A DNA stretch of 64,000 nt, from contig JBIOJG010000030.1 of the NCBI GenBank assembly GCA_044450645.1, forward strand, positions 47 through 64,046. The letters are read 5' to 3'. Of the stretch, positions 12,376 through 63,350 are shown in pieces (position 1 is the stretch's first letter; every line of letters begins with the position of its first letter). Below the pieces are notes generated by a model, which ran no database searches, was not told the DNA's origin, and saw only the letters and a list, made by a program, of their open reading frames with translations. The translations under genes and the position numbers were made by a program. This DNA is from Candidatus Binatia bacterium (GTDB lineage Bacteria > Desulfobacterota > Binatia > HRBIN30).

Positions 12376-12384
12376 GGGAGCAGA

Positions 12385-35072: not shown

Positions 35073-35295
35073 GCGTTGCCCGGATAGAAGAGGCCCTGCC
35101 CGAAGTCAACGCGCCATGGGCTCATTGGCCTGCTTGCCCGACCTTGGTGAGCCAGGCGTCCCCCGCGTGTGCAGGTTCGTTCAGCGCTGCAGCCATTTGT
35201 TGTTGATGGTCTTTTGCAGGTTGTGATAGCGATGGGTCCCATCCATGGAAGCCTGGGACAGAGCAGGCGCCGAGGCTCCTCACACATATGATCAT

Positions 35296-37833: not shown

Positions 37834-37890
37834 CTCGAATCCTGAATGACCATCCTTTGATTTCGCCTGGCAATCGGGTAGGGAACATCC

Positions 37891-38694: not shown

Positions 38695-38728
38695 CACCAT
38701 CCCTCGGTTTCACTACGGGTGTACGCAC

Positions 38729-39745: not shown

Positions 39746-39776
39746 ATGAATCAGCAGAGCAGAAGGGAACGCGAAG

Positions 39777-40238
39777 ATGAAGCGACGGAACCAGATTCAC
39801 ATGACGCCAGACGAAATGCGGCAATTCCTGAAACGTTCGAAGACGATCGTTCTCTCCACCATTGACCACCACGGGTATCCGCACTCGGTCGCCATGTGGT
39901 ACGAGATGGAGGGGGATGATTTCGTCATGACGACCTATGCCAAATCACAGAAGGCGATGAACATCCGCCGCAATCCGAAGGTTGCGTTGATGGCGGAATC
40001 GGGGGAGACCTACGAGTCGCTCAAGGGGGTGCTGGTGCGCGGCCGGGCGGAACTCATCACGGATGCCGAGCGGTGCGTCGGGATCTTGCTGCGCGTACAC
40101 GAGAAGATGAGCGGTGCCGCGCTGCCGCCCGGGGCCGAGGGCGTGTTGCGCGAGCAGGCACGCAAGCGCGTCCTGATCAAGGTCACGCCCGAGCGCACGA
40201 GTAGTTGGGACCACAGCAAGCTGGGCGGCGTGTACTGA
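39777..40238 (+). CDS. pyridoxamine 5'-phosphate oxidase-family (PPOX class, possibly F420/FMN-binding) protein
   Basis: 153 aa. SKTIVLSTIDHHGYPHSVAMWYEMEGDDFVMTTYAKSQKAMNIRRNPKVAL split-barrel FMN-binding pattern. Confidence 0.7.
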   Translation: MKRRNQIHMTPDEMRQFLKRSKTIVLSTIDHHGYPHSVAMWYEMEGDDFVMTTYAKSQKAMNIRRNPKVALMAESGETYESLKGVLVRGRAELITDAERCVGILLRVHEKMSGAALPPGAEGVLREQARKRVLIKVTPERTSSWDHSKLGGVY

Positions 40239-40344
40239 GGATAAGCCGAAACCGGAACGCCCGACACCGCCTGCGGTGTGCTGGTCGACCGTGTTCCATA
40301 GCCAGGCACATAGCCTGGCGAGCTTCTAACAGTGCGGCGCCTTA

Positions 40345-42174: not shown

Positions 42175-42282
42175 AACGGCTGGGAAATTCCCGCGGCCGC
42201 GCCGGGACGCTCCTGGATCGTCCACGGTTCGATCTTCTCATATTGCAAACGGCGTGCATTCCAGGCATGACCAGAGCACTGT

Positions 42283-44568: not shown

Positions 44569-44746
44569 CACGGCAAGAAGCCGCCGGATGCCGTCAAGGA
44601 GCCGAAAAAGGTGGTTTTTTCAAATAATTTGGGGTTTACTATTGACTAGTTTTGGCGAATACGGCATACGAGAAAGCGGTTTAGTCCGGGACCGAAGACC
44701 GGTCTCGTTAACAGTAGACGCTGGAATTGCCGAAAGGAGGCGTGCG

Positions 44747-46183
44747 ATGCGTGGATCAAAGCGGAGTCCTTGGCTGTTTGGCCTTGGGGTACTGCTCGCT
44801 GTCCTGGTGGTGTATGGAGGGCATGCCCGAGCCGACGTGACCACCGATCGATCTGGTTCAATCATTGTGTTTCCCAAAGTGGTGGCGGATGGCACACGGG
44901 ATACCATCATCCAAATGGCAAACACCTCTAACACGCAGACCACCGTGCACTGCACGTACGTCAACGCAGCCGGGTTCTGCAGTGTGACGACCACAACCCC
45001 GTGCGATCTCGATTCCGACTGCAGCACGGGCGAACTGTGCGTTCACCAATGTCTCGATCATAACTTTGAGATTTTTCTAACGGCGCAGCAGCCGACGTCA
45101 TGGAGGGTCAGTGCCGGCCGTGACTCCTTCCCGTTTGGGGGTCTGTCGGTGCCGCCGATGTTTGGCGGCACGAGCCCGAGCCCGTTTGTGGGCGAACTGA
45201 AGTGCGTCCAGGTTGACGGCTCGGGTGCGCCTGTCGGCCAGAACTCGCTCAAGGGCGAAGCGACCCTCTTCAGCGTCGCAGCTGGCCAGAAGTTTGGGCA
45301 GGTCAGCGAATACAATGCAATCGCCATTCTGGGGAACGGAGCCGGGTTGTCTGCACATAGCAACGTGCTCAACCTCAACCTCGCTGGCACCTGTCTGGCC
45401 GGTCCGAACATCGGACTGGCTTGCTCGGTCGACACGCAAGCGTCTGACTGTCCCGGTAGCACCTGCACCTTCAATGCTTTGGGTGAGTTCAATGCGTGTC
45501 CGAACAGCCTGGTGGTGAATCACTACGGTGATGGTGCCACCGATAGTTTCACCGGTGCGGACGTGAATACCGAACTGACGCTGGTTCCGTGCACGGAGCT
45601 TCTGGAGCTGGTGCCGACACACGCCCTGGCGCAATTCCAGATTTTCAATGAGTTCGAAAACAAGCTGAGCGCCAGCATAGACTTTGACTGCCTTTTGAAT
45701 CGGCGGTTGAGTAACATTAGCAGCCAGTTCACTGCTGGTACGATCGGCTCCGACTTTGCCAAGACGCGTATTTCACCGGCGGCCGGCAGCATCTGCTACA
45801 CTGGCGACAATCGGTGCCATCTCTGTACGCTTGGCGACACCGACCTTCAGTGTAACCCGGTGGGTGGGACGCCGCTGCCGGTAGGGGCGCTCGTGGGTAA
45901 CTGTGACTGCAACGCCGGCAACCCGTGCGTGAACCCGATCGGCGTCGGAACATGCGCCATAAGCGGGGCCAACTGTCAGAATGCTGGAGACTGCCCCGGT
46001 GCCGGAGACTCCTGCACCATCACGAACACCTTCGGGTGTATGCCTTGGTCCGGGCTACTTGGCGTAGCGGAGGAATTCCAGCAGCCTGTCGGTACGGGGT
46101 CCGTACCCGGTACGGCAGCGGTGAATGTGTATGTGGAAGGCAGTCGCCCAGGCGACGTCATTGTCCTGCCGCCGGTGCAGTAA
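44747..46183 (+). CDS. secreted Cys-rich protein, unknown family (paralog 1 of 4)
   Basis: SD aaaggagg 6 nt upstream. Signal peptide ends ARA|DVTTDRSGSIIVFPKVV. Shared family motifs: GELKCVQVD...LKGEATLF, TELTLVPC, QFQIFNEFENKLSASIDFDC, KTRISP. Confidence 0.75.
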   Translation: MRGSKRSPWLFGLGVLLAVLVVYGGHARADVTTDRSGSIIVFPKVVADGTRDTIIQMANTSNTQTTVHCTYVNAAGFCSVTTTTPCDLDSDCSTGELCVHQCLDHNFEIFLTAQQPTSWRVSAGRDSFPFGGLSVPPMFGGTSPSPFVGELKCVQVDGSGAPVGQNSLKGEATLFSVAAGQKFGQVSEYNAIAILGNGAGLSAHSNVLNLNLAGTCLAGPNIGLACSVDTQASDCPGSTCTFNALGEFNACPNSLVVNHYGDGATDSFTGADVNTELTLVPCTELLELVPTHALAQFQIFNEFENKLSASIDFDCLLNRRLSNISSQFTAGTIGSDFAKTRISPAAGSICYTGDNRCHLCTLGDTDLQCNPVGGTPLPVGALVGNCDCNAGNPCVNPIGVGTCAISGANCQNAGDCPGAGDSCTITNTFGCMPWSGLLGVAEEFQQPVGTGSVPGTAAVNVYVEGSRPGDVIVLPPVQ

Positions 46184-46273
46184 GTAAGGGTGGCGCGAGG
46201 TGGATCGATGAAGTCGAATGTGTCTCGCAGGAAACCCTGGGTCGCCCGCGAGTGGGACGAAAGGAGATGGGCA

Positions 46274-47515
46274 ATGGTGAAGATGACACGAGTTGCCTCG
46301 GTGACGACGCTGGCCGGACTCGCGCTGGGCATGTGGATGCTTGCGGCGCAGTCACCAGCAGAGGCCAAGACCACGTCGGATCAGGCCGCGGCCATACTCT
46401 ACTGGCCTAAGGTCGTCGTGGACAGCGCCAATCATACCGACACTTTGATTCGCTTGAGCAATACCAACACGAGCCTGCAGAAACAGGCGCACTGCTATTA
46501 TATCGATGCCAACAGTCACTGCTCCAATAACCCTAGTCAGGTATGCAACGGAAGCTGCTCTGGCGCGGGCGTGTGCCTCCAAGGCTGGGGCGAAATCGAC
46601 TTTGACATCGTCATCACCAGAGATCAGCCGCTGGCGTGGCACGCCAGTTCTGGGATGCATCACGGGCAGTTTCCGCTCGAGGTTCCTGGTGTGTGCAAAT
46701 TGGGACCTCCTTTCCCTTGCTCAGCCGACTTCCAGTGCCCTGCGGGCCCGGGGGGTGGCTGCCTGCTCCTGCCGAATAACATCGGCAGCGGGATCCCTCC
46801 CGTTGCGGAAGACCCGTTTGTGGGTGCACTGATTTGTGTGCAGTACGACCCGAGCGCAAATCCGCCAGCTCCGGACCAGAGCCTGACCACCGGCAATGCC
46901 CTGATCGGGGAGGCAACAATCGAGCGCGCGATCCCGGCGGCCGCTCCTGCTCCCGCGGGTGTGGACCTCGCGTCTTACAACGCGGTCGGCGTGAGGTATA
47001 AGGGTGGCGTCGAAACGGTGCCCCCTGGCGAGTTGCACCTCGACGGCGTGCAGTACGAGAGCTGCCCAACGACCCTGATTCTTGACCACCAATTCGACGT
47101 GGTTACAGGAACCGAGCAACAGGTGACCGATCTGACGCTGGTTCCCTGCGGTAATAATTTCCTCACGCAGACCCCAGGGTCAGTGACGGCGCAGTTCGTC
47201 ATCTTCAACGAGTTCGAGCAACGTTTCTCAACCAGCAATGGGGTGGACTGCTTCTTTGACAAGCAGCTCTCCAGGATCGATACCGTAGACCCGTCACGCT
47301 CGATATTCACGAGTTCGCAGGCTGGGACCGCTGTGGGCCAGACGCGTATCCGGCCCGTCAGCAGCGCCGCCACGGGTCGAGGGGTACTGGGGGTGGCGGT
47401 GTACAGGCAGCTCGGACCCACCGGCCTTGTTGGCGATGCGGCGTATGATCTGCACCAGAGTGGCAGTCTCGCTCCTGGTTCAGGAACACAGCCCGACGTC
47501 ATTACCATCCCGTAG
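46274..47515 (+). CDS. secreted Cys-rich protein, unknown family (paralog 2 of 4)
   Basis: SD aaggag 7 nt upstream. Signal peptide ...AEA. ILYWPKVVVDSANHTDTLIRLSNTNTS, GALICVQYD...LIGEATI, TDLTLVPC, AQFVIFNEFEQRFSTSNGVDCF, GQTRIRP. Confidence 0.75.
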   Translation: MVKMTRVASVTTLAGLALGMWMLAAQSPAEAKTTSDQAAAILYWPKVVVDSANHTDTLIRLSNTNTSLQKQAHCYYIDANSHCSNNPSQVCNGSCSGAGVCLQGWGEIDFDIVITRDQPLAWHASSGMHHGQFPLEVPGVCKLGPPFPCSADFQCPAGPGGGCLLLPNNIGSGIPPVAEDPFVGALICVQYDPSANPPAPDQSLTTGNALIGEATIERAIPAAAPAPAGVDLASYNAVGVRYKGGVETVPPGELHLDGVQYESCPTTLILDHQFDVVTGTEQQVTDLTLVPCGNNFLTQTPGSVTAQFVIFNEFEQRFSTSNGVDCFFDKQLSRIDTVDPSRSIFTSSQAGTAVGQTRIRPVSSAATGRGVLGVAVYRQLGPTGLVGDAAYDLHQSGSLAPGSGTQPDVITIP

Positions 47516-47577
47516 TCATTGGTGCCTGAGTGACGGGGGAGAGAGTTCAGGCCGGAATCCTAATAAGGAGGAAGCTC

Positions 47578-48978
47578 ATGAGGACGACCCAATGTGTGCG
47601 CGCCGGCTGGGTGATGGGTGCACTGGGAGCGTGCATGCTCGTGGCGGGTGCCGCGCGAGCGGACGTGACCACACAGCGTCCTGGCTCCATTCTGATTTTC
47701 CCGAAGGTTGTGAACGACGGGACGCGTGACACTGTTATCCAAATTACCAATACAAGCAACAGCTTGGACACGGCTCGATGCTTCTATCTTGCGGGCCAAC
47801 TGGGGGCGAACGGGCTGCCGCTTTGCTCTGAGACGGACTTCTTCATCAACCTCACGCGACAGCAGCCGACGATCTGGCGGGCGAGCACCGGCAGAGGCCA
47901 ATTTAGCTCGGATGGACTGTCGCCAGGTCAAGTTCCGCCCGTGCCGCTCGGCTTTACGGGCGCCTTGATCTGTGCCGAGGTCGATTCCAGCCTTGAGGCG
48001 CCGGTGGCGAAAAATGCCCTCAAGGGCGAGGCCACTCTGCTGTCGGCTACCAGCGATGACCAGAGTAAGTACAATGGCATCGCCTTCCTAGGCGGCGCAG
48101 CGAATGATGGCGATAACGTTCTCAATCTCGACAGCAGCGAGTATAACGCCTGCCCGGCCGGGTCGCGCGTAGATTTCATCGCGTCCGATGCCGAGGACCC
48201 GGTGATTGACAGCCTCGGGAACGCCGGCAGATGCAGCCTCGCGGGTGTCCTGACGGCTACGCCCTGCAACACCACCGCCAACTGCACCGGCGGCCAGATC
48301 TGCTCTACTGGCCAATGTAGCAACGGCGCGGCATGCAACGTTGATGCGGATTGCACGACTGGCACTTGTGCGCCGCTAACCGGGGTGACGACTAACGTAA
48401 CGGTCCTTCCGTGCAATCTCGATCTCAATGCGCTTGTGCCGACGGCTGTGTCGCTCGTGCTGAGCGGTAAGGACACCGAGCAGAGCACACTGAGCGGCTC
48501 GAAGACGATGTCCTGCTGGGAAAGCTTCGCGATCGATACCAGTGCAAGCTGCGCCGGAGGTTACGGACGGGTGTGCCTCACGCGGCCGAATACGACGTTT
48601 GCGAGTGTTGACATTACCTCCGGACGGGGCGGACCAGTGATTGCCGTGGCTGAGGCGTTTCACACGGACAGCGTAGGGCACACTTCCACGGCAGCTGTGA
48701 ACCTGCACGTCGAAGGCCAGTGCGTCGGTGCCTGCACGGCCCCGAGCCTGGGGGTTCCTTGCCTGACGTCTGCGGTATGCGGTGCGGGAACCTGCACCGG
48801 GGTAACCAGCATAGGCAGCGAGTGCAACAGCAACGCCGATTGCGGCGGTGGCCTGTGTTCCGGGCCACGGTTCTGCAGCGGCGGAACGGACGCTGGACAA
48901 GCGTGCACCGCTGATGCCAACTGTACCGGTGGCACGTGTCCGTTGCCAAGCGCACGAATTCATCTGCCTGGCGCATGA
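47578..48978 (+). CDS. secreted Cys-rich protein, unknown family (paralog 3 of 4)
   Basis: SD aaggagg. Signal peptide ARA|DVTTQRPGSILIFPKVVNDGTRDTVIQITNTSNS. GALICAEVDSS...LKGEATLL, TVLPCNLDL. Extra Cys-rich C-terminal repeats (CTG.TC). Confidence 0.75.
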   Translation: MRTTQCVRAGWVMGALGACMLVAGAARADVTTQRPGSILIFPKVVNDGTRDTVIQITNTSNSLDTARCFYLAGQLGANGLPLCSETDFFINLTRQQPTIWRASTGRGQFSSDGLSPGQVPPVPLGFTGALICAEVDSSLEAPVAKNALKGEATLLSATSDDQSKYNGIAFLGGAANDGDNVLNLDSSEYNACPAGSRVDFIASDAEDPVIDSLGNAGRCSLAGVLTATPCNTTANCTGGQICSTGQCSNGAACNVDADCTTGTCAPLTGVTTNVTVLPCNLDLNALVPTAVSLVLSGKDTEQSTLSGSKTMSCWESFAIDTSASCAGGYGRVCLTRPNTTFASVDITSGRGGPVIAVAEAFHTDSVGHTSTAAVNLHVEGQCVGACTAPSLGVPCLTSAVCGAGTCTGVTSIGSECNSNADCGGGLCSGPRFCSGGTDAGQACTADANCTGGTCPLPSARIHLPGA

Positions 48979-49047
48979 TGAGGTGCTGACATGGTGATGC
49001 GCGAGGGTGCGGTGGGTAGACGTTCATTGATTGAAAGGAGACGGGCG

Positions 49048-50370
49048 ATGGCGAACCGGGTACGGTCGAGTGCTCTCATCGGTGGTGTCGCGGTGGTTGC
49101 CGTCCTCCTGCTGATGGCCCAGCGTGGTCAGGCGCAGACGGTCGCGTCGGACCGAGCGGCTGGCTACGTTGTATTTCCGAAGGTCCTCGTGGACTCCACG
49201 GACATATTCACGCAGGGACGCAAGGTCGACACATTGATTCAGTTAACCAACACGGCGGAAGCTGCCGGCAGTGATACGGGATGCCGGGTGGTGGAATGCG
49301 TGTACGTGGACGCAACGATGCACTGCACAAACGACGTTACGCGACAGTGTCGGACCAGTGTGGATTGCGCTACGGGAGGAACGTGTGGACGGACCGATGA
49401 CTGGCAGGAGCGGAACTTTTTTATCACCCTGAGTGCCGGACAAGCGATCGGGTGGAGCGCAGATTCGGGGGCAACCCTGCCTGCCGACGCCGCCTGCGGA
49501 ACGACGTCGCAGACGATTCCCTTTGTGCCTGAGAAGTTCTTCATCGGCGAGCTGAAGTGCGTCGAGCTTCAGGCGCAGGACGGTCCACCGCTGAACGCGA
49601 ACGACCTCAAGGGTGAGGCGACGATTTACGAGGTGGCGACTGGAGTGACGCCCACAGGGGGCGTTGATGTACGGTCGTACAACGGTGTGGGTTTACAGGC
49701 GATCAAGACCGACCTGAGCACGCAAAGTGCGAGGTGCGTAGGTGGGACAAATCAAGGCACGGCCTGCACGGCGGACGCACAATGCCTGCCTACGGGGGTG
49801 GGTGTCTGTCTGCCGGTTTTGTGCCTGGGCTCGAATCCAGCGACGGGTGCTGTATGCGGCAGCTCGGCGCAGGCGTATGCCGGATGCCCAAGTACGCTGA
49901 TTCTGAATCACTGGTTTGATGGGGCGCTCAACCCGAAAACCGAGAATCCGATTACTACGGATCTGACGTTAGTGCCGTGTACCGAGGACTTGAGGAAGGT
50001 TGGCGCCGCCGCAACACCCGCAACGACGGTTCAGTTTCTAGTGTACAACGAGTTCGAGCAGCGGTTTTCCGCGAGTACTTCGGTCCGCTGCTTTAAGGAG
50101 ACGCAGCTTTCACGGATTGACACCCTGCCTGGGAATGACAGCGTATCGATTTTCAATTTCAGCGTTCAAGGTACGCTCACCGGGCAGACAAGAATTCGAC
50201 CGATCAACGGCACCGAGCTCGATAAGGGTCATGGCCTGCTCGGCGTTGCCGAGGAGTTTTCCAGGGGCAGTGGCCTCTTCCCGAGGGGCTCCGCGGCGTT
50301 CGATCTAGACTTCACAGGCACGCCGACCGGGAAGGCTGACGTCGTAACGCTTCACGTAAGTACGCCATAG
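49048..50370 (+). CDS. secreted Cys-rich protein, unknown family (paralog 4 of 4)
   Basis: SD aaaggag. Signal peptide. GYVVFPKVLVDS...DTLIQLTNTAEA, GELKCVELQ...LKGEATIYEV, TDLTLVPCTEDL, VQFLVYNEFEQRFSASTSVRCF, GQTRIRP, LLGVAEEF. Confidence 0.75.
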   Translation: MANRVRSSALIGGVAVVAVLLLMAQRGQAQTVASDRAAGYVVFPKVLVDSTDIFTQGRKVDTLIQLTNTAEAAGSDTGCRVVECVYVDATMHCTNDVTRQCRTSVDCATGGTCGRTDDWQERNFFITLSAGQAIGWSADSGATLPADAACGTTSQTIPFVPEKFFIGELKCVELQAQDGPPLNANDLKGEATIYEVATGVTPTGGVDVRSYNGVGLQAIKTDLSTQSARCVGGTNQGTACTADAQCLPTGVGVCLPVLCLGSNPATGAVCGSSAQAYAGCPSTLILNHWFDGALNPKTENPITTDLTLVPCTEDLRKVGAAATPATTVQFLVYNEFEQRFSASTSVRCFKETQLSRIDTLPGNDSVSIFNFSVQGTLTGQTRIRPINGTELDKGHGLLGVAEEFSRGSGLFPRGSAAFDLDFTGTPTGKADVVTLHVSTP

Positions 50371-51653: not shown

Positions 51654-52787
51654 CTAGCTGCCGAAAAATCGGCGTTTGTCAGCTGGGAGGGCAACGCGGT
51701 ACTTCTCCTCGAGTAGCGCGGAGGGCAGGTAAGTGCGGTCAAGCGCCAGCCGGAGCCGCCACACTTGGTCGCATGCGCGTACGAGGGAAGTGAGCTGCTC
51801 GGGGAACAGACCCTGAAAACCATCCGATTTGGCGATCAGGGGGTTGGGATGTACCTCGACGAGCACGACCGAGGCGCCGGCCACAATACCCGCCAAGGTC
51901 ATCGGATGAACCAGGTCTCGAATCCCGGTTCCGTGCGAGGCGTCGACGGCAACCGGGAGCCCTGAGAGCTGGTAGTGGAAGGCGGCGACGCTGCCGAGAT
52001 CGAGTGTGTTTCGCGTGTAGCGATTGCAGGTCGTTATACCACGTTCGCACAGAATGACGTTTTCCTTCCCGCCGGACATGATGCGTTCAACCCAGAGGAG
52101 GTACGCTTCCGTGTCGAGGGAATTGCCGCGCTTGTGTATCACCGGCAATGGAGTGCTGCGCAGGCGGTTGAGCAGTGCCTGGTTCTTCGAATTGGGCTCC
52201 CCTACCTGCAGACAGTCGATGCCCGCATCCTCGTACAGCGGTACATCAGCGGGATCGAGGATCTCCACTACCGTGGGAAGTCCGTACTCCCGGCCAGCCT
52301 TGACGACCAGGTCTAGTCCTTTGCGGAGCGATTCGTGGTCGGCACCCACAAGTCCTTCCCACCCGCTGTACGGACTGGAGCGGTATTTGAGCACTCCGCC
52401 GCGCAGGGCTCTGCAACCGGCGGTCTTCACGATGCGAGCAGCCTCGATGATTTGGGCTTCACTCTCGACCGAACACGGTCCCCCAATCACTACAAGGTCC
52501 TGTCCCCCACATACCACCTGTCCGATAGCGACCCGCTGGTGCACCAAGTGGCCGGGAGAGCCTTTCTGGGCTGCCCGTTTGTAGGCTCTGGAGATCGGGA
52601 TCAGTACTTCGACCCCCGCCATCTCTTCGATTTCCCCACTCGGGAGTCGGCTGATGTCTCCGTAGACGCCGATCAGGGTGATCTCTTCGCCCACGAGGAT
52701 GCCAGTTTTGAAGCCAAGATCAGCCAAGCGATCCTCGATGGCGCGCACCTCATCGGTGCTACTGCCAGGTCGCATTTTGACTAGCAT
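51654..52787 (-). CDS. 3-deoxy-7-phosphoheptulonate (DAHP) synthase, class I-beta, with N-terminal ferredoxin-like regulatory domain
   Basis: 377 aa. Catalytic barrel motifs GPCSVES, KYRSSPYS, HKRGNS, CERGI, DASHG. About 90-aa N-terminal extension as in the Thermotoga-type enzyme. Confidence 0.85.
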   Translation of the reverse strand: MLVKMRPGSSTDEVRAIEDRLADLGFKTGILVGEEITLIGVYGDISRLPSGEIEEMAGVEVLIPISRAYKRAAQKGSPGHLVHQRVAIGQVVCGGQDLVVIGGPCSVESEAQIIEAARIVKTAGCRALRGGVLKYRSSPYSGWEGLVGADHESLRKGLDLVVKAGREYGLPTVVEILDPADVPLYEDAGIDCLQVGEPNSKNQALLNRLRSTPLPVIHKRGNSLDTEAYLLWVERIMSGGKENVILCERGITTCNRYTRNTLDLGSVAAFHYQLSGLPVAVDASHGTGIRDLVHPMTLAGIVAGASVVLVEVHPNPLIAKSDGFQGLFPEQLTSLVRACDQVWRLRLALDRTYLPSALLEEKYRVALPADKRRFFGS

Positions 52788-54059: not shown

Positions 54060-55500
54060 TATTCTCCTCGTCGAGGACGATCCCGGTCAGGCCCGTCTTG
54101 TCGAGAAGACGCTTACACGGGCTGGCTTACGGGTGAGCCACGTGCCGGACGGGAGTGCGTGTCTCGAACGGGTGCGGCGGCAGCCCCCGGACTTTTTACT
54201 GCTGGACCGTGGCTTGCCCGACGGAGACGGACTCGACGTGTTGCGGACGCTCCACGCGGAGTTTCCACAGGTGTGTGTCATCATGCTGACCGGCGCGGAT
54301 GACGCTACGGTTGCTGTCGACGCGATGCGCCTCGGTGCGTGGGATTACGTCGTGAAACGGCCCGACCTTTCCCACTTGAACGATCTGCGGCTGGTGCTGG
54401 ATCGCAATCGAGAGCGGCGGCGCCTGTTGCAGGAGCACGAGGCCCTCAATCAAGCCGTTCGCACCTCGGAAGAGCGATTCCGCGAATTGTTCAATAACGC
54501 CTCCGACGCGATCTTCGTGTGCGGCGACACCGGCGTGCTGCAGCAGGTCAACCAAGCCTTCGTCGACATCATCGGCCTCGACCGCGCGGAGATCGAGGGC
54601 AAGCATCTGGACAATTACCTCGCGCCCACCACGCTGACCCGGACGCAAGATCTACGGGAAGGCAGCCTGCGGGCGGAACGGCAGCCAGCCACGGAGGTGC
54701 ACTTGGTTTCGAAAAGCGGCCGCACGACGGTTCTGGAAGTGACCACGCGACCGATGTCTGAAAAAGGGCAGGTGACCGGTTTCCAGGGGATTGGGCGTGA
54801 CGTGACCGAGCAACGCCAGATCGAGCAGATGAAGGCGGATTTTCTGGCGATGGTTACCCACGACATGAAAAACCCCGTCAGCATCATCGTTGGCTACGCC
54901 GAGATCCTGCTGAACGACAGCGCCCTCCATCCGGACTGGCACGAGATGCTGGTGAGCATCGACTCCAGCGCACGCGGCTTGCTGCACCTGATCACGAACT
55001 TCTTGGACCTTTCGAAGATCGAGGCTGGAGCCCTGCGATTACACCAGGTTGAGATCAGTATCAATGAAGTCTTGCACCACATCGTTCAGTTCGAGCATCC
55101 TCTGGCCCGCGCCAAGAATATCGAGGTCGTCGAGAATTTCCAGCCGGTGCCAATCGTGCACGTGGATCGCTCGCAGATGGACCGTGTCTTCATCAATCTT
55201 ATCGGCAACGCCATCAAGTTCACCCCTCGCGGCGGTCAGGTTCGCGTCGACACCTGCAGTCACAATGGCACGGTTGAAATTCACATTAGCGACACCGGGC
55301 CGGGTATTCCTCCGGAGCAGGTACCGCAGCTGTTTCGGAAGTATCAGCGCCTCTCGTCGACCAGTGGAGCTGACGGCACGGGGCTCGGCCTCTTCATCGC
55401 AAAATCAATGATTGAGGCGCACGGTGGGAGCGTGGCAGTAAAGAGCGTGCCGAATGCGGGTGCGACCTTCATTGTTGCGCTGCCGGCCACACGCCGCTAG
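54025..55500 (+). CDS. hybrid sensor: receiver domain - PAS - histidine kinase (HisKA + HATPase_c)
   Basis: DILLVEDD...LLLDRGLPDGDG receiver. PAS (EERFRELFNNASDAIFVCGD). H-box THDMKNPVSII. N/G1/G2 boxes (NLIGNAIKFT, DTGPGIP, GTGLGL). Confidence 0.85.
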   Translation: MESKVAQQSAGDILLVEDDPGQARLVEKTLTRAGLRVSHVPDGSACLERVRRQPPDFLLLDRGLPDGDGLDVLRTLHAEFPQVCVIMLTGADDATVAVDAMRLGAWDYVVKRPDLSHLNDLRLVLDRNRERRRLLQEHEALNQAVRTSEERFRELFNNASDAIFVCGDTGVLQQVNQAFVDIIGLDRAEIEGKHLDNYLAPTTLTRTQDLREGSLRAERQPATEVHLVSKSGRTTVLEVTTRPMSEKGQVTGFQGIGRDVTEQRQIEQMKADFLAMVTHDMKNPVSIIVGYAEILLNDSALHPDWHEMLVSIDSSARGLLHLITNFLDLSKIEAGALRLHQVEISINEVLHHIVQFEHPLARAKNIEVVENFQPVPIVHVDRSQMDRVFINLIGNAIKFTPRGGQVRVDTCSHNGTVEIHISDTGPGIPPEQVPQLFRKYQRLSSTSGADGTGLGLFIAKSMIEAHGGSVAVKSVPNAGATFIVALPATRR

Positions 55501-56144
55501 TCGCGGAGAGGTCGGTACAGTCGGTACTCCAACGGTTGATCGGGTGGCTGGGTGGCGCTATGTCTGGCGATGTCGTCGAAGTGCACGCGCGCCCTCTCGA
55601 AAGCGTCAGCATCGACCCAGTGGGAGAACGACCCCACCAGCAAGGGCTCTTCAAACCCGCGAAACATAATGTTGGCGAGATGGCCGCTTTGGCCGGAAAG
55701 TGTACGCCACAACTTCTCCTCCTGCCCATGCCACTTGTCACTGTTGCTGGCCAGGTGGATGAGGACGCTGGCGGCTATGGCACCATCCGGCAGATCGAGC
55801 CCCTTGGTGGAGGTGACGGGTCCTCCGATCTCCACGATCAGTCGGTGTGGCCCGGTGCTGAGCACCGCACGGGCGCGTCGCATTAGTGGCGTCCCCTGCA
55901 GGTGCTGGCGGGCGCCGTCGAGAGCCTTTTTGCTTTCCCATTCCGAGTAAACCAAGCGCTGCAGTGGTTCCCTGAGGTTCTGATAGATACGGTGGGTGAC
56001 GTAGCCTTGTTTGCGGCGGAGGATTTGCCAGGTTTCGCGCTCGTACTGCGCCAGCGCCGGCTCGGTGCCGGCGCGTATCGTCATCGTCAGCAATTCAGCG
56101 ATCGGTCTCTTCATGGGCCCACGATTGCCCTTTTTGCCGTCCAA
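55497..56144 (-). CDS. hypothetical protein, possibly tandem ABM (antibiotic-biosynthesis-monooxygenase-like) ferredoxin-fold domains
   Basis: 215 aa. Two similar halves each with the Y..E.W.S......H pattern. Weak call. Confidence 0.35.
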   Translation of the reverse strand: MDGKKGNRGPMKRPIAELLTMTIRAGTEPALAQYERETWQILRRKQGYVTHRIYQNLREPLQRLVYSEWESKKALDGARQHLQGTPLMRRARAVLSTGPHRLIVEIGGPVTSTKGLDLPDGAIAASVLIHLASNSDKWHGQEEKLWRTLSGQSGHLANIMFRGFEEPLLVGSFSHWVDADAFERARVHFDDIARHSATQPPDQPLEYRLYRPLRD

Positions 56145-56236
56145 CTCAAGTCGCTTCGCACAGCCGGCGTGCGTGTTGGAATCATGCGGTCAGGAAGGTA
56201 GAGATGCGACGCGTGCGCCGCAGTCGACGGGACGCC

Positions 56237-56974
56237 TCAGAGCTGACGCGGAGCGGGCGTGCTCCGCACTGCGCGCCTGCCCTTGCGCAACAGAGGAATC
56301 GAGAGGATCTTCTCCTCTTGCAGAATCTCCCAGATGACACCACGCGGTCGCGGATGCAGACTCGGCGCCGCGATCACCTGATCCGGAGTGATGACGAAAT
56401 CGACCGGGATGTCGTGCCCGCGCATGGGGAGTCGATCGTCGATGATTTGCGCCGGATGGATGGTGGTGAGGATCGGGGTGTACTCCCGGATCTTCCCTTC
56501 ACTGCGCAAGAGCGCATACTCCAGGTCGCCGTAGCCGCCGCCCCGGCCGAGGCGTGCACCTTGGCGGTTCACGGCTACGGATCCGCAGACGACCAGGTCG
56601 ACGGGGCGTATCTCGTGCGGTGCAATCAAGCGCCCAAACTGCATGGCGCCAGTGATGCTGCCCACTCGAGCGATCTTCGCGCCGAGTCTATCCGGGTCCA
56701 GCTCGATGAAGCAACGTTCGCTGCGCAGCCGCGGCATTGCCAGGTAGACGATCTTGCCTTCGCGCAACGCCGCGCGCCGGATGGGAAGCTGTGGCGCATC
56801 CAAGTTGATTTTGACGGCTCTGGCGCGCTTCCACATGGGTAGCTCGCATAGCAGTCGTGCGGCGCGATCGGAGCCAACGAAGTTGGGGATGCGCGCATCA
56901 ACCCCTGGAAAGCGTGCCACGCCCGCGAGCATGAGCCGCGTGCGCACCCTCTGGCGAATGTCATCTTTCGTCAT
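56237..56974 (-). CDS. 5-formyltetrahydrofolate cyclo-ligase family protein
   Basis: VDLVVCGSVAVNRQGARLGRGGGYGDLEY matches the 5-FCL GxGxGYYD-type motif region. Confidence 0.65.
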   Translation of the reverse strand: MTKDDIRQRVRTRLMLAGVARFPGVDARIPNFVGSDRAARLLCELPMWKRARAVKINLDAPQLPIRRAALREGKIVYLAMPRLRSERCFIELDPDRLGAKIARVGSITGAMQFGRLIAPHEIRPVDLVVCGSVAVNRQGARLGRGGGYGDLEYALLRSEGKIREYTPILTTIHPAQIIDDRLPMRGHDIPVDFVITPDQVIAAPSLHPRPRGVIWEILQEEKILSIPLLRKGRRAVRSTPAPRQL

Positions 56975-57007
56975 GGAAGACGGTTGCGAGATGCACAAAA
57001 ATCGGTA

Positions 57008-57838
57008 CTACAAGCTCGCCTGTGAGTCAACGCGTTTTTGCATGGAGGACTCGCATACGCGCCGCGCCACGACGATGAAGCCGGTGTGACCGATCATGCG
57101 GTGCTCGGGGCGAACGCTGAGGTTCTTGACGTGCCAGAAGCGGACCATGGTCTCGAATGATTGGATCGCTGCAAAACCGCCGTGATCTCGGAGGCCATCC
57201 ACAAACTGTTTGACCTGCATGACGGTCGGTACATAGCCCACGATGAGCCCTCCGCTGCGCAGCGCCTCCGCTGCCGCGGGCAGGAGCCGCCAGGGTTCGG
57301 CGAGGTCCACGGTCATGCGGTCGACCCCGCGTTCCTCGATGCCGGCGAAGGCGTCAGCTACCTTTACGGTCCAATTGGGGGCCGTACCGTAGAACTGCTG
57401 CACATTGTTCCGCGCCATTTCTGCGAAGTCAGGGCGCGTCTCGTAGGAGATGACGCGCCCCTCCAGGCCGACCGCACGCAGCAATGCCATGCTCAGCGCC
57501 CCCGGACCGGCGCCGATCTCGATCACCGTCGCCCCCGGATAGATGTCACCCCAGAGCAGGATCGGGCCGATGTCCTTCGGATAGATCACTTGCGCGCGGC
57601 GCGGCAAGTTGGGAATGAGCTGCGCAAAGCTTGGGCGCAGCATGAGAAACGGTTCTCTCGCTGTGGTGTAGACGATGCAGCCTTCTTCGAGTCCAATCAG
57701 ATGGTCCGCCTGCATCGTCCCACCGCGGATATGCACGCGGGCGCCGGCGCGCAGCACGCGTAAGTACTCGCGTTCTTTTGAGTCGATGAACAGGACGCTA
57801 TCGCCGGCTCGTAGCTGGCCGCTTTCCGGTCGCTCCAT
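57008..57838 (-). CDS. trmI: tRNA (adenine58-N1)-methyltransferase
   Basis: 276 aa. GCD14/TrmI N-terminal beta domain plus SAM-binding VIEIGAGPGALS, DLAEPW motif. Confidence 0.85.
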   Translation of the reverse strand: MERPESGQLRAGDSVLFIDSKEREYLRVLRAGARVHIRGGTMQADHLIGLEEGCIVYTTAREPFLMLRPSFAQLIPNLPRRAQVIYPKDIGPILLWGDIYPGATVIEIGAGPGALSMALLRAVGLEGRVISYETRPDFAEMARNNVQQFYGTAPNWTVKVADAFAGIEERGVDRMTVDLAEPWRLLPAAAEALRSGGLIVGYVPTVMQVKQFVDGLRDHGGFAAIQSFETMVRFWHVKNLSVRPEHRMIGHTGFIVVARRVCESSMQKRVDSQASL

Positions 57839-57871
57839 TGCAGGACCTCTCTGACGTGTTGTCGGATGTAC

Positions 57872-58810
57872 TCAGTGGTTTTCGCTTGCGGTGTAAGCGG
57901 TGGGGCGCCGCTGCCGCTTGGCTTCGACCTCGCGGATCAGCCCGCAGAAGGCGCACGAGGAACCGAATGCCGGCATCCCGCATCGCTCGCACGAACCCGG
58001 CGCCCCGTCAACGTGCCCTGAGAATGCCGGCCTTCCGACGCGCAGGAATTCCTGCACGAAGCTGAGCTTCGTCCCCGGCATCATCGCCTCCAGACGATTC
58101 AACGCCTCCTTGTAAAGCAGCGGCGTTGCCCCGACGCTGTTCGGGCACTCCTCGACGACGTAGTCGATGCCGCGAAAGAATGCGTACACCGCCGATTCAT
58201 ATTCGCTCAGCCGAAACAGCGGCTTGACTTTACGGACAAAGCGCTCGTGCGTCGATTCCAGCACGGGACGCTGCTTGCCGAGATGGTGTACCTGCCAGTG
58301 GAGTACGTTGCCCAGCAGTCGGGCGGCCTCGTCGTCGAGGTTGTGTCCAGTTGCGAGCACCGGGAAGCCATGTTCGAAAGCGAGACGGTCGAAGTAGTGG
58401 CGCTTGATGGTGCCGCAGGCGGCGCATGCCGGGCGGTGCGTGTAGGCCGTCACCGTTGGGATCGCCAGCCCGTCTTCCTCCAGACGCACGGTGATCAAAC
58501 GCAACCCTCGGTCGCGGGCAAAGGCCTCCGTTTTCTCGGTCGAGGTGTGCGAGTAGGATCCGATCCCAAGTGCCAGGTGCATCCCCGTGGTGCGATAGCC
58601 GAGCTCGTTCAGCGCATCCCAGAGGGCGAGACTGTCCTTGCCTCCGGAAACGGCCACCAACACTTCCTCGTCGCGAGTGAACATCTTCTCTTTTTCGACG
58701 GCGCGCTGAACCTGCCGTTGGAAACAAAAGATGAAACAGCCGCGGCAGAAGGCGGAGTTGCCCTGCCGGATCCGCACTTCGGCCTTAGACCGGCAGCGTT
58801 TGCATTTCAT
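57872..58810 (-). CDS. ttuA: tRNA 2-thiolation PP-loop ATPase of the TtuA/TtcA/NcsA family
   Basis: 312 aa. N-terminal Zn ribbon CKRCRSKA...CRGC. PP-loop VAVSGGKDS. Fe-S cysteines (PACAACGTIKR...ECPNS). C-terminal Zn ribbon CERCGMPA...CAFCG. Confidence 0.8.
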   Translation of the reverse strand: MKCKRCRSKAEVRIRQGNSAFCRGCFIFCFQRQVQRAVEKEKMFTRDEEVLVAVSGGKDSLALWDALNELGYRTTGMHLALGIGSYSHTSTEKTEAFARDRGLRLITVRLEEDGLAIPTVTAYTHRPACAACGTIKRHYFDRLAFEHGFPVLATGHNLDDEAARLLGNVLHWQVHHLGKQRPVLESTHERFVRKVKPLFRLSEYESAVYAFFRGIDYVVEECPNSVGATPLLYKEALNRLEAMMPGTKLSFVQEFLRVGRPAFSGHVDGAPGSCERCGMPAFGSSCAFCGLIREVEAKRQRRPTAYTASENH

Positions 58811-58825
58811 ATGGCTGCCCTGCGT

Positions 58826-59020
58826 TTACCCGCCAGAGATGACGTTCCGAATCTCTATGGCGTCGTTCGCCTCGATGAACTCGTTGTCGCACACCAGCTC
58901 ATTGCCGCGGATGACCATGACGGTTCCAGGCAGAAGCCCCAAATCCCGCAGAACGTCCGCGACGCGACGGCGTCCGTCCAGCTCAATCTGCTTGTGCTGG
59001 GGCAATAGCGTGATTTGCAT
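58826..59020 (-). CDS. ttuB: ubiquitin-like sulfur-carrier protein (ThiS/MoaD/TtuB family) ending in Gly-Gly
   Basis: 64 aa from MQITLLPQHKQIELDG...; terminates ...IRNVISGG-stop. Lies 15 nt upstream of ttuA. Confidence 0.65.
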   Translation of the reverse strand: MQITLLPQHKQIELDGRRRVADVLRDLGLLPGTVMVIRGNELVCDNEFIEANDAIEIRNVISGG

Positions 59021-59094
59021 GTAAGGGCTCACAGACAATAGGAAAAGCCAGATTGGGAGTCAACGCAACGGCTGACGGGTCGGGGCGGGAAGAT

Positions 59095-59700
59095 TCAAAG
59101 CACCCCCAACAATCCCGTCAGAATCCGGTAGGTCAAGCCCCAGATCGTGTGCCCCTGATACAGAAAAGCATTCTGCTCCAGTTCCTGACCGCCGAGACTA
59201 AACCGGATACTCCCTTGAGCCTCGCGGTGTCGCAGGAATGACAGTGGGACCCAGAGCGCGCGGTCGACCTCGTGATGGTTCAGGACCAGTTGCACGGGAT
59301 CGCTCACCGCGAAAACGAAGGGAGTGATGACCAACTCGAGGGGCCGGCCTCCGGCAAAGGCGGGCAGCTCGTCCAGACGTCCGAGCAGTTGGCCCTGTCC
59401 GAGTAGATCGATGCCAACCTCTTCGCGGGTTTCGCGCGCTGCCGTCATGAGGAGGTCGTCGTCTGACGGATGCTGCCGCCCACCCGGCAGCGCCATATGT
59501 CCTGACCATGGGTCACCTGTACGTTCGGAACGGCGGATCGCTACGAACTCAGCCCCACCGTCGGCTTCACGCAGCACTACCGCAACGGCCGCGCGCGAAT
59601 AACCATTGCCCTCCAATACGGAAGGCTGATGCGTAAGGAGGCGTTCTCGGATCCGCTCAATCTTCATCGAGGTGTCCACTGCAAGATATCGCCCTGTCAA
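59095..59700 (-). CDS. NUDIX hydrolase, CoA pyrophosphatase (NudL-like) subfamily
   Basis: NUDIX box GGRQHPSDDDLLMTAARETREEVGIDL. Upstream AVVLRE...FVAIRRSER...GHMALPGG CoAse-type motif. Confidence 0.8.
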   Translation of the reverse strand: MTGRYLAVDTSMKIERIRERLLTHQPSVLEGNGYSRAAVAVVLREADGGAEFVAIRRSERTGDPWSGHMALPGGRQHPSDDDLLMTAARETREEVGIDLLGQGQLLGRLDELPAFAGGRPLELVITPFVFAVSDPVQLVLNHHEVDRALWVPLSFLRHREAQGSIRFSLGGQELEQNAFLYQGHTIWGLTYRILTGLLGVL

Positions 59701-59869
59701 TTACGACTCTAGAGCTTCAACGACTTCCACGCCAGTGGTGACCGCCCCCGATTCGTGTCGGTGCTAAGACGAATCGGAACCGCGCCAAGTGGATCGCGAT
59801 GAGCCTATTGCCAATGGCCCGTCGCGCTCAGCTGGTGCTGTCCGACGGTACGCCATAAGCCAAGGCCGT

Positions 59870-60349
59870 CTAATCTAGGGCCTGAGGATCGGCGCGGGCG
59901 ACTAGGGAGCGCAGGTCTTCGCAATGGAGGACCTCCTCCCGGCGTAGCTCGTCGAAAAGCCCAGCCGTTTGCGGGAATGTTTCGGCAAACCGTATCGCCA
60001 GCTCGCGCAGGCGCTGCGTCGAAGAACGATGAGCCTCGAGGTCCTGGAGGAGACGAGTCCAATGGTTCAACGCGCCGCGCGGCGGTGGTCCGGAGGAGAC
60101 AGACGGAATACCGGCTCCCGCAGCATCGAGCGCTTGACGCAGGCGTTCACGTTGCTTCCCCTCGCCCGACGCCAGGTGCCTCAACGCGTCGGCGCTGTAA
60201 CGTTGAGGGGCAAGTTCGGCGTGTTGCTCCAGCTGCGCTGTGCGCCGGGCGCAGTCGATGTACGACTGGACCAATGCTGCAATGGCCTCGCTTGGGGTAC
60301 CGGCGTCTCCGCCGATGGCCAGACGAGACAGTTTTTGCATGATACCCAT
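59870..60349 (-). CDS. hypothetical protein, possibly ferritin-like four-helix bundle (DUF2383/PA2169-like)
   Basis: Start taken at the internal Met (MGIMQKLSRL...). Helical, with periodic Glu/Arg/His. Low-confidence assignment. Confidence 0.3.
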   Translation of the reverse strand: MGIMQKLSRLAIGGDAGTPSEAIAALVQSYIDCARRTAQLEQHAELAPQRYSADALRHLASGEGKQRERLRQALDAAGAGIPSVSSGPPPRGALNHWTRLLQDLEAHRSSTQRLRELAIRFAETFPQTAGLFDELRREEVLHCEDLRSLVARADPQALD

Positions 60350-60529
60350 AGTGCCGGCCGAACCGTAGTGGTCCGACCGATGTCTGTCAAGCACCAGGCG
60401 TAGCTGGTCGTCACATGGCGAGACCTTGGGGCTTCCGGGTGGTGCTGGGTGTAACCCAGTACCTTCCGGGTGGCAGGGTTTCGCTACCGCTGGATTTTCG
60501 CTATATAGAAACATTCCAAAGGAGACGAA

Positions 60530-60733
60530 ATGGCGCGGATTACCGTCGAAGATTGCCTGGAGAAGGTGCCCAACCGATTTCAACTGGTACTGCTGGCGGC
60601 CCGGCGGGCGAAACAGTTGTTAAAAGGAGCCCGGCCGTTGGTGGATAGCGACAACAAAGAAGTGGTTGCAGCCTTGCGCGAGATCGCCGAAGGTAAGGTG
60701 ACGATGAAGTACCTGGACACGGAGGAGTCCTGA
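60530..60733 (+). CDS. rpoZ: DNA-directed RNA polymerase subunit omega
   Basis: 67 aa. [29 protein letters not shown] is the RpoZ signature. Confidence 0.85.
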
Positions 60734-60827
60734 GTCCCAGCGTCCTCAGTCCGGAGATCCGCATCAGCCCTGAGGCTCACGACTCAGCATCCACGGCCGA
60801 GAACGGCGGTTGAGGGCTGTTCCTCCC

Positions 60828-61970
60828 ATGACAGCGAAAGATCTCTACCGCGTGCTGGGAGTTGAACGTAACGCCAGTGCCGGGGACCTCAAGAAAGCTT
60901 ACCGCAAGCTTGCTCGTCGCCACCATCCCGACGTCAATCCCGGCAACAAAGAAGCCGAGGAACGTTTCAAAGAGATCTCGCAAGCGCACGACATCCTGAG
61001 CGATCCCGAAAAACGGAAACTGTATGACGAATTCGGCCTGGAAGGGGTTCAGACGGGTTTTGACGCGGCACGCACGCGTGCACAAAGCGAATGGAACGCG
61101 CGCCAGCAGGCGAGGGGTGCCAGTCCGTTTGAGGGAGGTGGATTCGGCCGCTTCGGGGCGGGCGACCGTTACGAGAACCTCGAAGACGTTTTTGGCGACG
61201 TCTTCGGAGAGGCCGCCCGGCCAGGACCGCGGCCCGGGCAAGATGCCGAGGCCTCCTTGGATATTGGTCTGCTTGATGCGGTGCGAGGTGTCTCCACACA
61301 GATCACCCTCGAACGAGCCGATGCGTGCGCGACCTGCCATGGTTCCGGTAGTGAACCGTCATCCGAAACTGTATGCCCCGAATGCCAAGGGCGCGGTCGT
61401 GTTCAGCTCGGCCGCGGGCCGATTGCCTTCGGACGAACATGTCCGCGCTGCCGCGGTGCAGGCCGGGTCGGGATGCGAGCATGCTCCACATGCAAGGGAC
61501 GGGGACAGAGTTCACACTCGGAGCGCCTTACCGTGCATATTCCGGCGGGCGTGGACACTGGGTCGCGAGTCCGGGTTGCCGGCAAGGGCGCACCCGGCAG
61601 CGGCGGTGGCCCGCCCGGAGATTTGTACATTGTCGTCCGCGTCCGCCCACATCCGCTGCTCGAACGGCGTGGCTCGGACCTGTATCTCGACGTGCCCGTG
61701 ACTGTTGGTGAGGCGGCCTTGGGCGGGGCGATCTCCGTGCCGACGCCGGATGGCGAGGTCCGTGTGAAAGTTCCTCCGGGCAGTCAAAGCGGTAAACTAC
61801 TCCGTATCCGCAGTCACGGGGTGCCCGCTCTCAAGGGTGGAGAGCGCGGGGATCTGTATGTTCGCTTGATGGTCCAGGTGCCGGTAGACGGCAATGAGAA
61901 AGTTCGAGAAGCCATCCGGACGGTGGAATCGGCGTATGGCGGAGATCTGCGCAGCGGATTGCGCCTGTAG
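60828..61970 (+). CDS. dnaJ: molecular chaperone DnaJ (type I, with Zn-finger domain)
   Basis: J domain [31 protein letters not shown]. Gly/Phe region. Four CxxCxGxG repeats ([32 protein letters not shown]). C-terminal peptide-binding domains. Confidence 0.9.
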
Positions 61971-62007
61971 AGCGAACCTGACGTCGTTGGCGTCGAGGTG
62001 ACGTGTC

Positions 62008-62319
62008 GTGGCCATGCACCGCTACTTGAAGGTTTCCGAGGTTGTGTCACAACTCCATGTGGACGCCGACTTTTTGCGCGCCTTGGAGGCGGAGGATCTC
62101 ATCCGCCTCAAACGCACTTCCGAAGAGGATCTGGTGATTTCCTCCGAGGATGTTGAGCGCGTGAGGCTGGTACTGGTGCTTACGGGCGAACTGGATGTGA
62201 ATCTGGCCGGCGCCGAGGTGATCATGCATATGCGGGAATCGATGCTGGCCATGCAGCGCCAATTCTCGGAGATTCTGGACGCTTTGGTTGCGGAAATGCG
62301 GCGTCAGTTGGGACGTTGA
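62008..62319 (+). CDS. MerR-family heat-shock-type regulator (HspR/CbpM-like)
   Basis: 103 aa. N-terminal MerR-type HTH (YLKVSEVVSQLHVDADFLRALEAEDLI). Sits immediately downstream of dnaJ. Confidence 0.55.
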   Translation: MAMHRYLKVSEVVSQLHVDADFLRALEAEDLIRLKRTSEEDLVISSEDVERVRLVLVLTGELDVNLAGAEVIMHMRESMLAMQRQFSEILDALVAEMRRQLGR

Positions 62320-62390
62320 GCCGCTTGCATCAGCCGTGCAACTTGCCGGCACCAAGGAATGAGTTTACATTTTCACTGACGCCGGACCAA

Positions 62391-63350
62391 ATGAGCGACG
62401 AACTCGACGAAAAAGACAGGCAGGAACCCGCCGGGGAGCTCCGGCCGGAGAATGAAGAGGATGCTGAGGAACGGCCGGACGGGGGCGCGCTTGTCCGGTA
62501 CGATCCTCTGCAGCGCTACCTGTCAGAGATCCGCCGCTACGCACTGCTGTCCCGCGAAGAAGAGCACCGCGTCGCCGTGCAATATCAGGAAAACAAGGAC
62601 ATCGAGGCCGCATACCGCTTGGTGACCGCGAACCTGCGACTCGTGGTGATGATCGCGCGTGAGTATCAGCACGCGGTTCGCACTCTGCTGGATCTGATTC
62701 AGGAGGGGAACATCGGCCTGATGGAGGCGGTGAAAAACTTCGACCCCTATCGCGGCATCCGCTTCCCATCGTACGCCGTGTGGTGGATTCGCGCCTATAT
62801 CATCCGCTACGTGATGAACAACTGGCGCATGGTCAAGATCGGCACCACGCAAGCGCAGCGGAAGCTCTTCTTCAATTTGCAGAAGGAAAAGGATCGCCTG
62901 GAAGCGGAAGGGTTTGTTCCCGGGCCCAAGCTCTTGGCCCAACGCCTCGACGTCAAAGAATCGGAAGTCGTGGAAATGGAGCAGCGGCTCTCCGCCCGCG
63001 ATCTCTCCGTGGATACACCGGTGGAAGCGGGGGAGAACGCCACCATGCTCGACTTCCTGCCGAGCAAAGATGCCACGGTGGAGGATGAGGTCGCTTCCGC
63101 CGAATCGCGCGAGCTGATTTCGCAGAAGGTCAAAGAATTCGGGCAGACGCTCACCGGCAAGGAGCAGGTCATCTTCGAGGGGCGGCTGATGGCGGACGAG
63201 CCCCTGACCTTGCAGGATATTGGCGACCGGTACGGCATCAGTCGTGAACGTGTGCGCCAGATCGAAGAACGGGTGAAGAAGAAGCTCAAGGCGTACCTCT
63301 TGGCTGAATGCAAGGACGTCGAGGACGCCGTCATCGATATCATCCGGTAG
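62391..63350 (+). CDS. rpoH: RNA polymerase sigma-32 (heat-shock sigma factor)
   Basis: RpoH box QRKLFFNLQKEKDRL. Region 2 (YLSEI..YALLSREEE, NLRLVVMIAREY, GNIGLMEAVKNFDP) and region 4 HTH (LQDIGDRYGISRERVRQIE). Confidence 0.9.
   Translation: MSDELDEKDRQEPAGELRPENEEDAEERPDGGALVRYDPLQRYLSEIRRYALLSREEEHRVAVQYQENKDIEAAYRLVTANLRLVVMIAREYQHAVRTLLDLIQEGNIGLMEAVKNFDPYRGIRFPSYAVWWIRAYIIRYVMNNWRMVKIGTTQAQRKLFFNLQKEKDRLEAEGFVPGPKLLAQRLDVKESEVVEMEQRLSARDLSVDTPVEAGENATMLDFLPSKDATVEDEVASAESRELISQKVKEFGQTLTGKEQVIFEGRLMADEPLTLQDIGDRYGISRERVRQIEERVKKKLKAYLLAECKDVEDAVIDIIR

Follow-up and report, generated by a model that had tools for sequence, protein, structure and literature searches.

The 64,000-nucleotide stretch of contig JBIOJG010000030.1 from a Candidatus Binatia bacterium that we analyzed here (referred to below as the window) carries three adjacent minus-strand genes that correspond to ttuB, ttuA, and trmI of Thermus thermophilus. 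We consider it likely that these genes belong to a conserved Binatia operon that is read from a sigma70-type promoter of its own and specifies two coupled tRNA T-loop modifications, 2-thiolation of (ribo)thymidine 54 (s2T54, also written m5s2U54 for 5-methyl-2-thiouridine) and N1-methylation of adenosine 58 (m1A58). Five lines of evidence from our comparisons carry this reading: the identities of the genes, the conservation of ligands, the synteny, the purifying selection, and the conservation of the promoter. The genes were originally predicted as three co-directional, closely packed open reading frames (ORFs), and their positions and strand are as that prediction gave them (Table 1). The gaps between ttuB and ttuA and between ttuA and trmI measure just 15 and 33 nucleotides (nt), and neither contains a terminator-like hairpin. 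The mechanism encoded here is ordinary and the system is already known; in gene order it enlarges on the ttuB-ttuA pair described before.

Against five relatives, the ratio of nonsynonymous to synonymous substitution rates (dN/dS) is 0.05 to 0.25 for ttuB, 0.10 to 0.16 for ttuA, and 0.10 to 0.13 for trmI. Relatives at about 92% identity were also used in the analysis. Each of the three genes, the 64-amino-acid (aa) ORF included, is under purifying selection. The NCBI annotation of the source metagenome-assembled genome (MAG) calls the same three genes (MFI5397161-63, exact protein matches), and the 64-aa ttuB is also predicted by independent gene callers. In that annotation TrmI is named "tRNA (adenine-N1)-methyltransferase," TtuA "ATP-binding protein," and TtuB "thiamine biosynthesis protein ThiS"; the last two names, given by the Prokaryotic Genome Annotation Pipeline (PGAP), are under-annotations that can be corrected. 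A reading of the genes as silent remnants left by horizontal transfer is barely credible given these dN/dS values (0.05 to 0.25 across the three genes), the intactness of all catalytic residues, the conservation of the promoter, and a gene order that is kept down to 58% TtuA identity.

The product of the second gene is, on its alignment scores, a TtuA-clade enzyme, and it is predicted to thiolate position 54. It matches the solved T. thermophilus TtuA with 292 bits (E value of 5e-86, residues 1 to 302) and is 48.5% identical to it over the full length in a pairwise alignment. The match to the archaeal Pyrococcus horikoshii TtuA (PH0300; PDB 3vrh and 5mko), with which it shares architecture and [4Fe-4S] PP-loop chemistry, reaches 234 bits over residues 1 to 295. 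The Pfam domains TtuA_LIM_N (28.6 bits against a cut-off of 27) and ATP_bind_3 are both above their cut-offs. The alignment shows that all the functional residues known from Thermus, for zinc, Fe-S, and PP-loop/ATP binding, are retained. The PP-loop S55-G-G-K-D-S60 aligns with T. thermophilus residues 55 to 60, and the Fe-S ligands C129, C132, and C222 (C130, C133, and C222 in T. thermophilus) are invariant in the alignment of relatives. The N-terminal zinc finger comprises C3, C6, C22, and C25, and the C-terminal one C274, C277, C286, and C289. The first finger is thus of the CCCC type, whereas that of Thermus is CCCH, with histidine at position 25. K136, the equivalent of T. thermophilus K137, is invariant among the aligned relatives, while K226 and K229, the other two target lysines in Thermus, are not conserved.

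A PP-loop enzyme of this kind might instead thiolate another nucleoside, either U34, like NcsA and Ncs6, or C32, like TtcA, in which case the linkage with trmI would be incidental. TtuA and NcsA do share domain architecture, the NcsA and TtcA models both match significantly (3e-30 and 5e-13), and the characterized TtuA proteins all come from thermophiles. Nevertheless, we regard this alternative as highly improbable: the 292 and 234 bits to characterized TtuA proteins compare with 89 bits to NcsA (3e-24) and 49, 40, and 17 bits to the TtcA, TilS, and MnmA models, TtcA lacks the two zinc fingers present here, and the conserved linkage with an A58 methyltransferase indicates the T-loop. The archaeal NcsA/SAMP2/UbaA and eukaryotic Ncs6/Urm1/Uba4 systems resemble the one described here in enzyme fold and in the use of a ubiquitin-like thiocarboxylate sulfur donor, but they make s2U34 at the wobble position and are far less similar in sequence (NcsA reaches 89 bits, and SAMP2 an E value of 0.04). 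Our assignment of TtuA to its clade rests on the bit-score gaps (292 and 234 versus 89 and 49), which we deem decisive, rather than on a tree. By these scores the protein does not group with TtcA, the outcome named beforehand as speaking against TtuA, and the TtuA identity first proposed for it holds.

The 64-aa product of the first gene is, judged by its matches, a ubiquitin-like protein of the beta-grasp (ThiS/MoaD) fold and a predicted TtuB-like sulfur carrier. Among solved proteins it matches T. thermophilus TtuB best (5ztb_E, 1e-10, residues 4 to 64), and its last codons, read directly, are ATC TCT GGC GGG TAA, so that the protein ends in NVISGG followed by the stop. Both the match and the Gly-Gly end agree with the identity that had been put forward for it. 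We also weighed whether the protein is chiefly a ThiS for thiamine synthesis, or a ubiquitin-like protein modifier, and not a carrier dedicated to TtuA. This is quite improbable, even though PGAP names it ThiS, weak matches to both SAMP2 and ThiS exist, and K136 is invariant here. T. thermophilus TtuB is reportedly also conjugated to proteins, including TtuA at K137, as Shigi is said to have described in 2012. The match to TtuB at 1e-10 contrasts with 0.04 for SAMP2, a ttuB-like ORF lies directly 5' of ttuA in almost all loci (see below), and no thiamine gene neighbors it among the window ORFs that were scanned; a role in conjugation would, moreover, supplement the carrier role and not supplant it.

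The C-terminus of TtuB varies among related loci. A GG-stop ending like that of the window is found in just 32 of about 108 TtuB homologues, including the window's clade and Thermus. Two extra residues follow the GG in 41 of them (GGAA, GGSR, GGAR, and others), where the ttuB stop overlaps the ttuA start codon (ATGA); five extra residues follow in 10, among them Marinithermus (GGHGALP), and one in 9. Loci with such non-GG-stop forms include L005-L013, L022-L024, L049, L060-L064, and L115, and the window is not one of them. The extended C-termini would have to be trimmed before they could be adenylated; no trimming peptidase was identified for these homologues.

The third gene product carries the domains GCD14 (PF08704, 4e-24) and TrmI-like_N (PF14801, 4e-12), both above cut-off, and matches solved TrmI proteins from Mycobacterium tuberculosis (Rv2118c, 8e-63), Pyrococcus abyssi (about 1e-42), and T. 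thermophilus (8e-34), in keeping with its earlier designation as TrmI. Its closest solved relative, Rv2118c (PDB 1i9g, aligned over residues 7 to 264), comes from a mesophile. The motif GAGPGAL aligns with GAGSGAL of Rv2118c, and VDLAEPW, which includes an aspartate, aligns with LDMLAPW. In TrmI structures, the former binds S-adenosylmethionine (SAM) and the aspartate of the latter belongs to the catalytic pocket. In Mycobacterium, TrmI is not known to be linked with TtuA.

The arrangement of the three genes is widely conserved. In a genome scan limited to one genome per species, 24 bacterial loci were found, all of them in Binatia-type MAGs (some mislabelled), and all 24 keep the order ttuB-ttuA-trmI down to 58% TtuA identity. 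A metagenome scan gave at least 583 confirmed stretches with TtuA relatives and added 80 loci with TtuA identities of 45 to 73%. Across the genome and metagenome loci together, 100 of the 103 with enough upstream sequence have a ttuB-like ORF ahead of ttuA, and trmI lies no more than 300 nt 3' of ttuA in 39 of 39 loci at a TtuA identity of 58% or above and in 16 of 44 at 45 to 58%; the pool includes near-duplicate loci, which makes these counts less than fully independent. Gene calling based on the GC content of third codon positions chose wrong frames in loci of 70% GC and was not relied on for the neighbors. Outside Binatia, an Armatimonadota MAG has ttuB-ttuA-trmI, and Thermus sp., Marinithermus hydrothermalis, and a Dehalococcoidia MAG lack trmI within 5 kb of their ttuB-ttuA pair. 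By this pattern, ttuB-ttuA is the general arrangement, to which trmI has been added recurrently, as a derived feature, in Binatia and certain other uncultured lineages. The original prediction had called the order a thermophile-type arrangement, a description that does not fit its occurrence in Binatia, in the Armatimonadota MAG, and in other uncultured lineages, nor its absence from the Thermaceae Thermus and Marinithermus, the family to which the model thermophile belongs. By its gene order, ttuB-ttuA-trmI is a tight, co-directional, and conserved predicted operon of Binatia, probably continued by a gene of the MTHFS type.

Upstream of ttuB, a scan of 5.6 kb (55300-60900) returned a single promoter-like match, at 59063..59035, where about one is expected by chance, so that the match taken alone is at chance level. 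Its conservation argues for a predicted sigma70-type promoter belonging to the operon: in 14 related loci the element GCGTTGACT-N17-TATTGT is kept 10 to 13 nt ahead of the start codon, and the remaining spacer has diverged. The same contrast points to a very short leader and to the ATG start that gives the 64-aa protein. An alternative TTG start at 59038 (70 aa) is disfavored because it lies inside the conserved promoter-like element and because the close homologues are all 64 aa long. A sigma32-type promoter was considered in view of the neighboring heat-shock genes and was rejected, as the conserved motif is sigma70-like.

The Thermus system provides the template for a mechanism (PMC5372739, PMC6225789). 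There, TtuA and TtuB make s2T54 together with TtuC, TtuD, and IscS/SufS, and TrmI makes m1A58. The window system is like that of T. thermophilus in its orthologous TtuA with the ligands kept, in its Gly-Gly TtuB, in the position of ttuB directly 5' of ttuA, and in the presence of a TrmI orthologue. It differs in that trmI lies inside the operon (in Thermus and Marinithermus it is not within 5 kb of ttuA), in the MTHFS-like gene appended to it, and in a host composition that is not thermophile-like. The chemistry expected by orthology, including U54 as target, the partner enzymes, and the production of s2T54 itself, would run as follows. An E1-like enzyme encoded elsewhere would adenylate the C-terminal Gly64 of TtuB, and cysteine-derived sulfur would then turn this terminus into a thiocarboxylate. 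TtuA, with ATP at the PP-loop S55-S60 and a [4Fe-4S] cluster on C129, C132, and C222, would adenylate C2 of (m5)U54 and finally exchange the oxygen of U54 for the sulfur borne by TtuB. TrmI would place a methyl group on N1 of A58, which forms a reverse-Hoogsteen pair with U54, and the methylated A58 would make thiolation faster, as it does in Thermus. The link between m1A58 and thiolation that the original prediction invoked is indeed published for Thermus, where m1A58 is a positive determinant for TtuA and speeds thiolation (PMC6418473, PMC7912444). Its description of TtuD as a cysteine desulfurase was mistaken, as TtuD is a rhodanese-like protein (PMC5372739). Co-transcription of trmI with ttuB and ttuA would keep the two activities in step and enforce their coupling.

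Several observations weigh against a T-loop modification operon in this organism. The NCBIfam TtuA equivalog NF049949, an archaeal, Pyrococcus-type model, scores the window TtuA at 254.7 bits against a cut-off of 450; the profile library searched holds no matching model for a bacterial-type TtuA equivalog. The Pfam models SAMP2 and ThiS match TtuB at 21 and 18 bits, below cut-offs that are insensitive at a length of 64 aa. A scan of approximately 40 window ORFs found neither an E1-like enzyme nor a rhodanese, a cysteine desulfurase, or a JAMM peptidase, and neither the window nor 32 related Binatia loci contain tRNA genes or Rfam families. Finally, m5s2U54 is described as found in thermophiles "but not from mesophiles" (PMC6313347, PMC13602947). 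As a side observation, one Binatia locus (L024) encodes a class-V aminotransferase at a distance of 2.2 kb, which is uninformative alone.

The description of m5s2U54 as thermophile-specific bears on whether the host of the operon is a thermophile or a moderate thermophile, the hint given by the original prediction. Other points in favor are the enrichment of two Binatota orders at geothermal sites, a cluster of rpoH, dnaJ, and hspR next to the operon, and a nominally high combined frequency of Ile, Val, Tyr, Trp, Arg, Glu, and Leu (IVYWREL) of 0.428 for the 34 Pfam-confirmed proteins of the window. The same measure falls to 0.368 on all rough ORFs, and since it swings from 0.368 to 0.428 with the ORF set, we dropped whole-window IVYWREL as a proxy for growth temperature and used an ortholog-controlled comparison instead. 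Binatia-type TtuA proteins (n=118) have an IVYWREL of 0.382±0.015 and a charged-versus-polar bias (CvP) of 0.075, whereas Thermaceae TtuA proteins (n=13) have values of 0.467±0.012 and 0.155. The window TrmI, at 0.446 (CvP of 0.085, n=1), is near the TrmI of the mesophile M. tuberculosis, at 0.423 (CvP of 0.031, n=1). Binatota live mostly in soil, freshwater, and sponges (PMC8262859, the source also for the two geothermal orders), and the names of several operon-bearing MAG records (CTSoil, SMAG, MFD, K_Offshore) suggest a soil or lake source. A thermophilic host is therefore unlikely, and moderate thermophily of this particular MAG is improbable though conceivable; the composition of the Binatia proteins and the provenance of the relatives do not support it. 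The original prediction also took two further features of the window as hints of thermophily. One is a DAHP synthase (3-deoxy-D-arabino-heptulosonate 7-phosphate synthase) whose architecture nothing in these data ties to thermophily, and the other is a split Nit/NadE pair, which is no marker in itself. Of its overall interpretation, then, the gene identities, the conserved unit, and the Thermus m1A58 link stand, and the thermophile-type arrangement and the thermophilic lineage do not.

The remaining features of the window are collected in Table 1. The MTHFS-like gene, which starts 33 nt after trmI, is probably the fourth gene of the operon; its product belongs, as a divergent member, to the 5-formyltetrahydrofolate cyclo-ligase family. 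This protein matches PF01812 with 91 bits and the MTHFS equivalog TIGR02727 with 34 bits (cut-off of 85), and its best solved match is Bacillus subtilis YqgN (2.8e-6). Of the 24 Binatia genome loci, 18 carry the gene 3' of trmI, as do many metagenome loci, and it is not found there outside Binatia. It is conceivable, as pure speculation, that its product ties to the folate-dependent formation of m5U54 by TrmFO. On the other side of ttuB, a Nudix hydrolase gene and a gene for a conserved protein lie upstream on the same strand, divided from ttuB by the conserved promoter and syntenic in the closest relatives only. The heat-shock cluster lies about 1.5 kb away and is divergent from the operon; the rpoZ-dnaJ adjacency is retained in the closest relatives, and in Binatia loci that are more distant, lon takes the downstream place instead. 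Farther off, seven large ORFs have a composition unlike that of housekeeping genes, which drags the window IVYWREL down to 0.37. PF18152, the regulatory domain of DAHP synthase, is matched in the near-identical locus L026.

Table 1. Operon genes, predicted promoter, and neighboring features, in positions of the window
Feature	Position	Strand	Description
ttuB	58826..59020	minus	64 aa from ATG, predicted TtuB-like carrier
ttuA	57872..58810	minus	312 aa, predicted U54-clade tRNA 2-thiouridine synthetase, [4Fe-4S]- and ATP-dependent
trmI	57008..57838	minus	276 aa, predicted SAM-dependent tRNA m1A58 methyltransferase
MTHFS-like gene	56237..56974	minus	245 aa from ATG, probable fourth operon member
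Predicted sigma70-like promoter	59035..59063	minus	TTGACT, 17-nt spacer, TATTGT; 14 nt 5' of the ttuB ATG
Nudix hydrolase gene	59095-59700	minus	CoA-pyrophosphatase-like, below equivalog cut-off
Conserved protein gene	59870-60583	minus	no family match
Heat-shock cluster	60530-63350	plus	rpoZ, dnaJ, HspR-like MerR regulator, rpoH (sigma-32; 286 bits against a cut-off of 241)
DAHP synthase gene	51654-52787	minus	type I-beta class, N-terminal ferredoxin-like regulatory domain; below NCBIfam subfamily cut-off
Seven large ORFs	35245-50370	plus	338 to 862 aa, zero Pfam matches
P-domain ORF	14174-19051	minus	1,625 aa, three proprotein-convertase P-domains, no other recognized domain
Split glutamine-dependent NAD+ synthetase	11416-13257	plus	nitrilase-type amidase (PRK13981 N-terminal half) and separate NadE (PRK13980, 337 bits)

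It is mildly unexpected to find supposedly thermophile-specific machinery intact and under selection in a mostly mesophilic phylum and on many soil metagenome contigs. Because the host does not look thermophilic, stiffening of the tRNA elbow might serve another reason there, or be used under stress only. We advance tentatively, as a real possibility that we would not yet call probable, that 2-thiolation of T54 is not confined to thermophiles: mesophilic soil and freshwater Binatia, along with other lineages from soil metagenomes, may really make s2T54 and m1A58, and the trmI-wired operon beside rpoH, dnaJ, and hspR may serve to harden the tRNA elbow for stresses such as transient heat or desiccation, and not for growth at high temperature. 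The recurrent joining of trmI to the operon provides independent genomic support for the coupling of m1A58 and s2T54 that is known biochemically in Thermus. Reviews up to 2026 regard m5s2U54 as a hallmark of thermophiles. The operon's intactness, selection, and conserved promoter across a mostly soil and freshwater class, together with the many metagenome stretches that carry TtuA relatives, point to a modification, or at any rate a machinery for it, that is far commoner than the cultured record would indicate.

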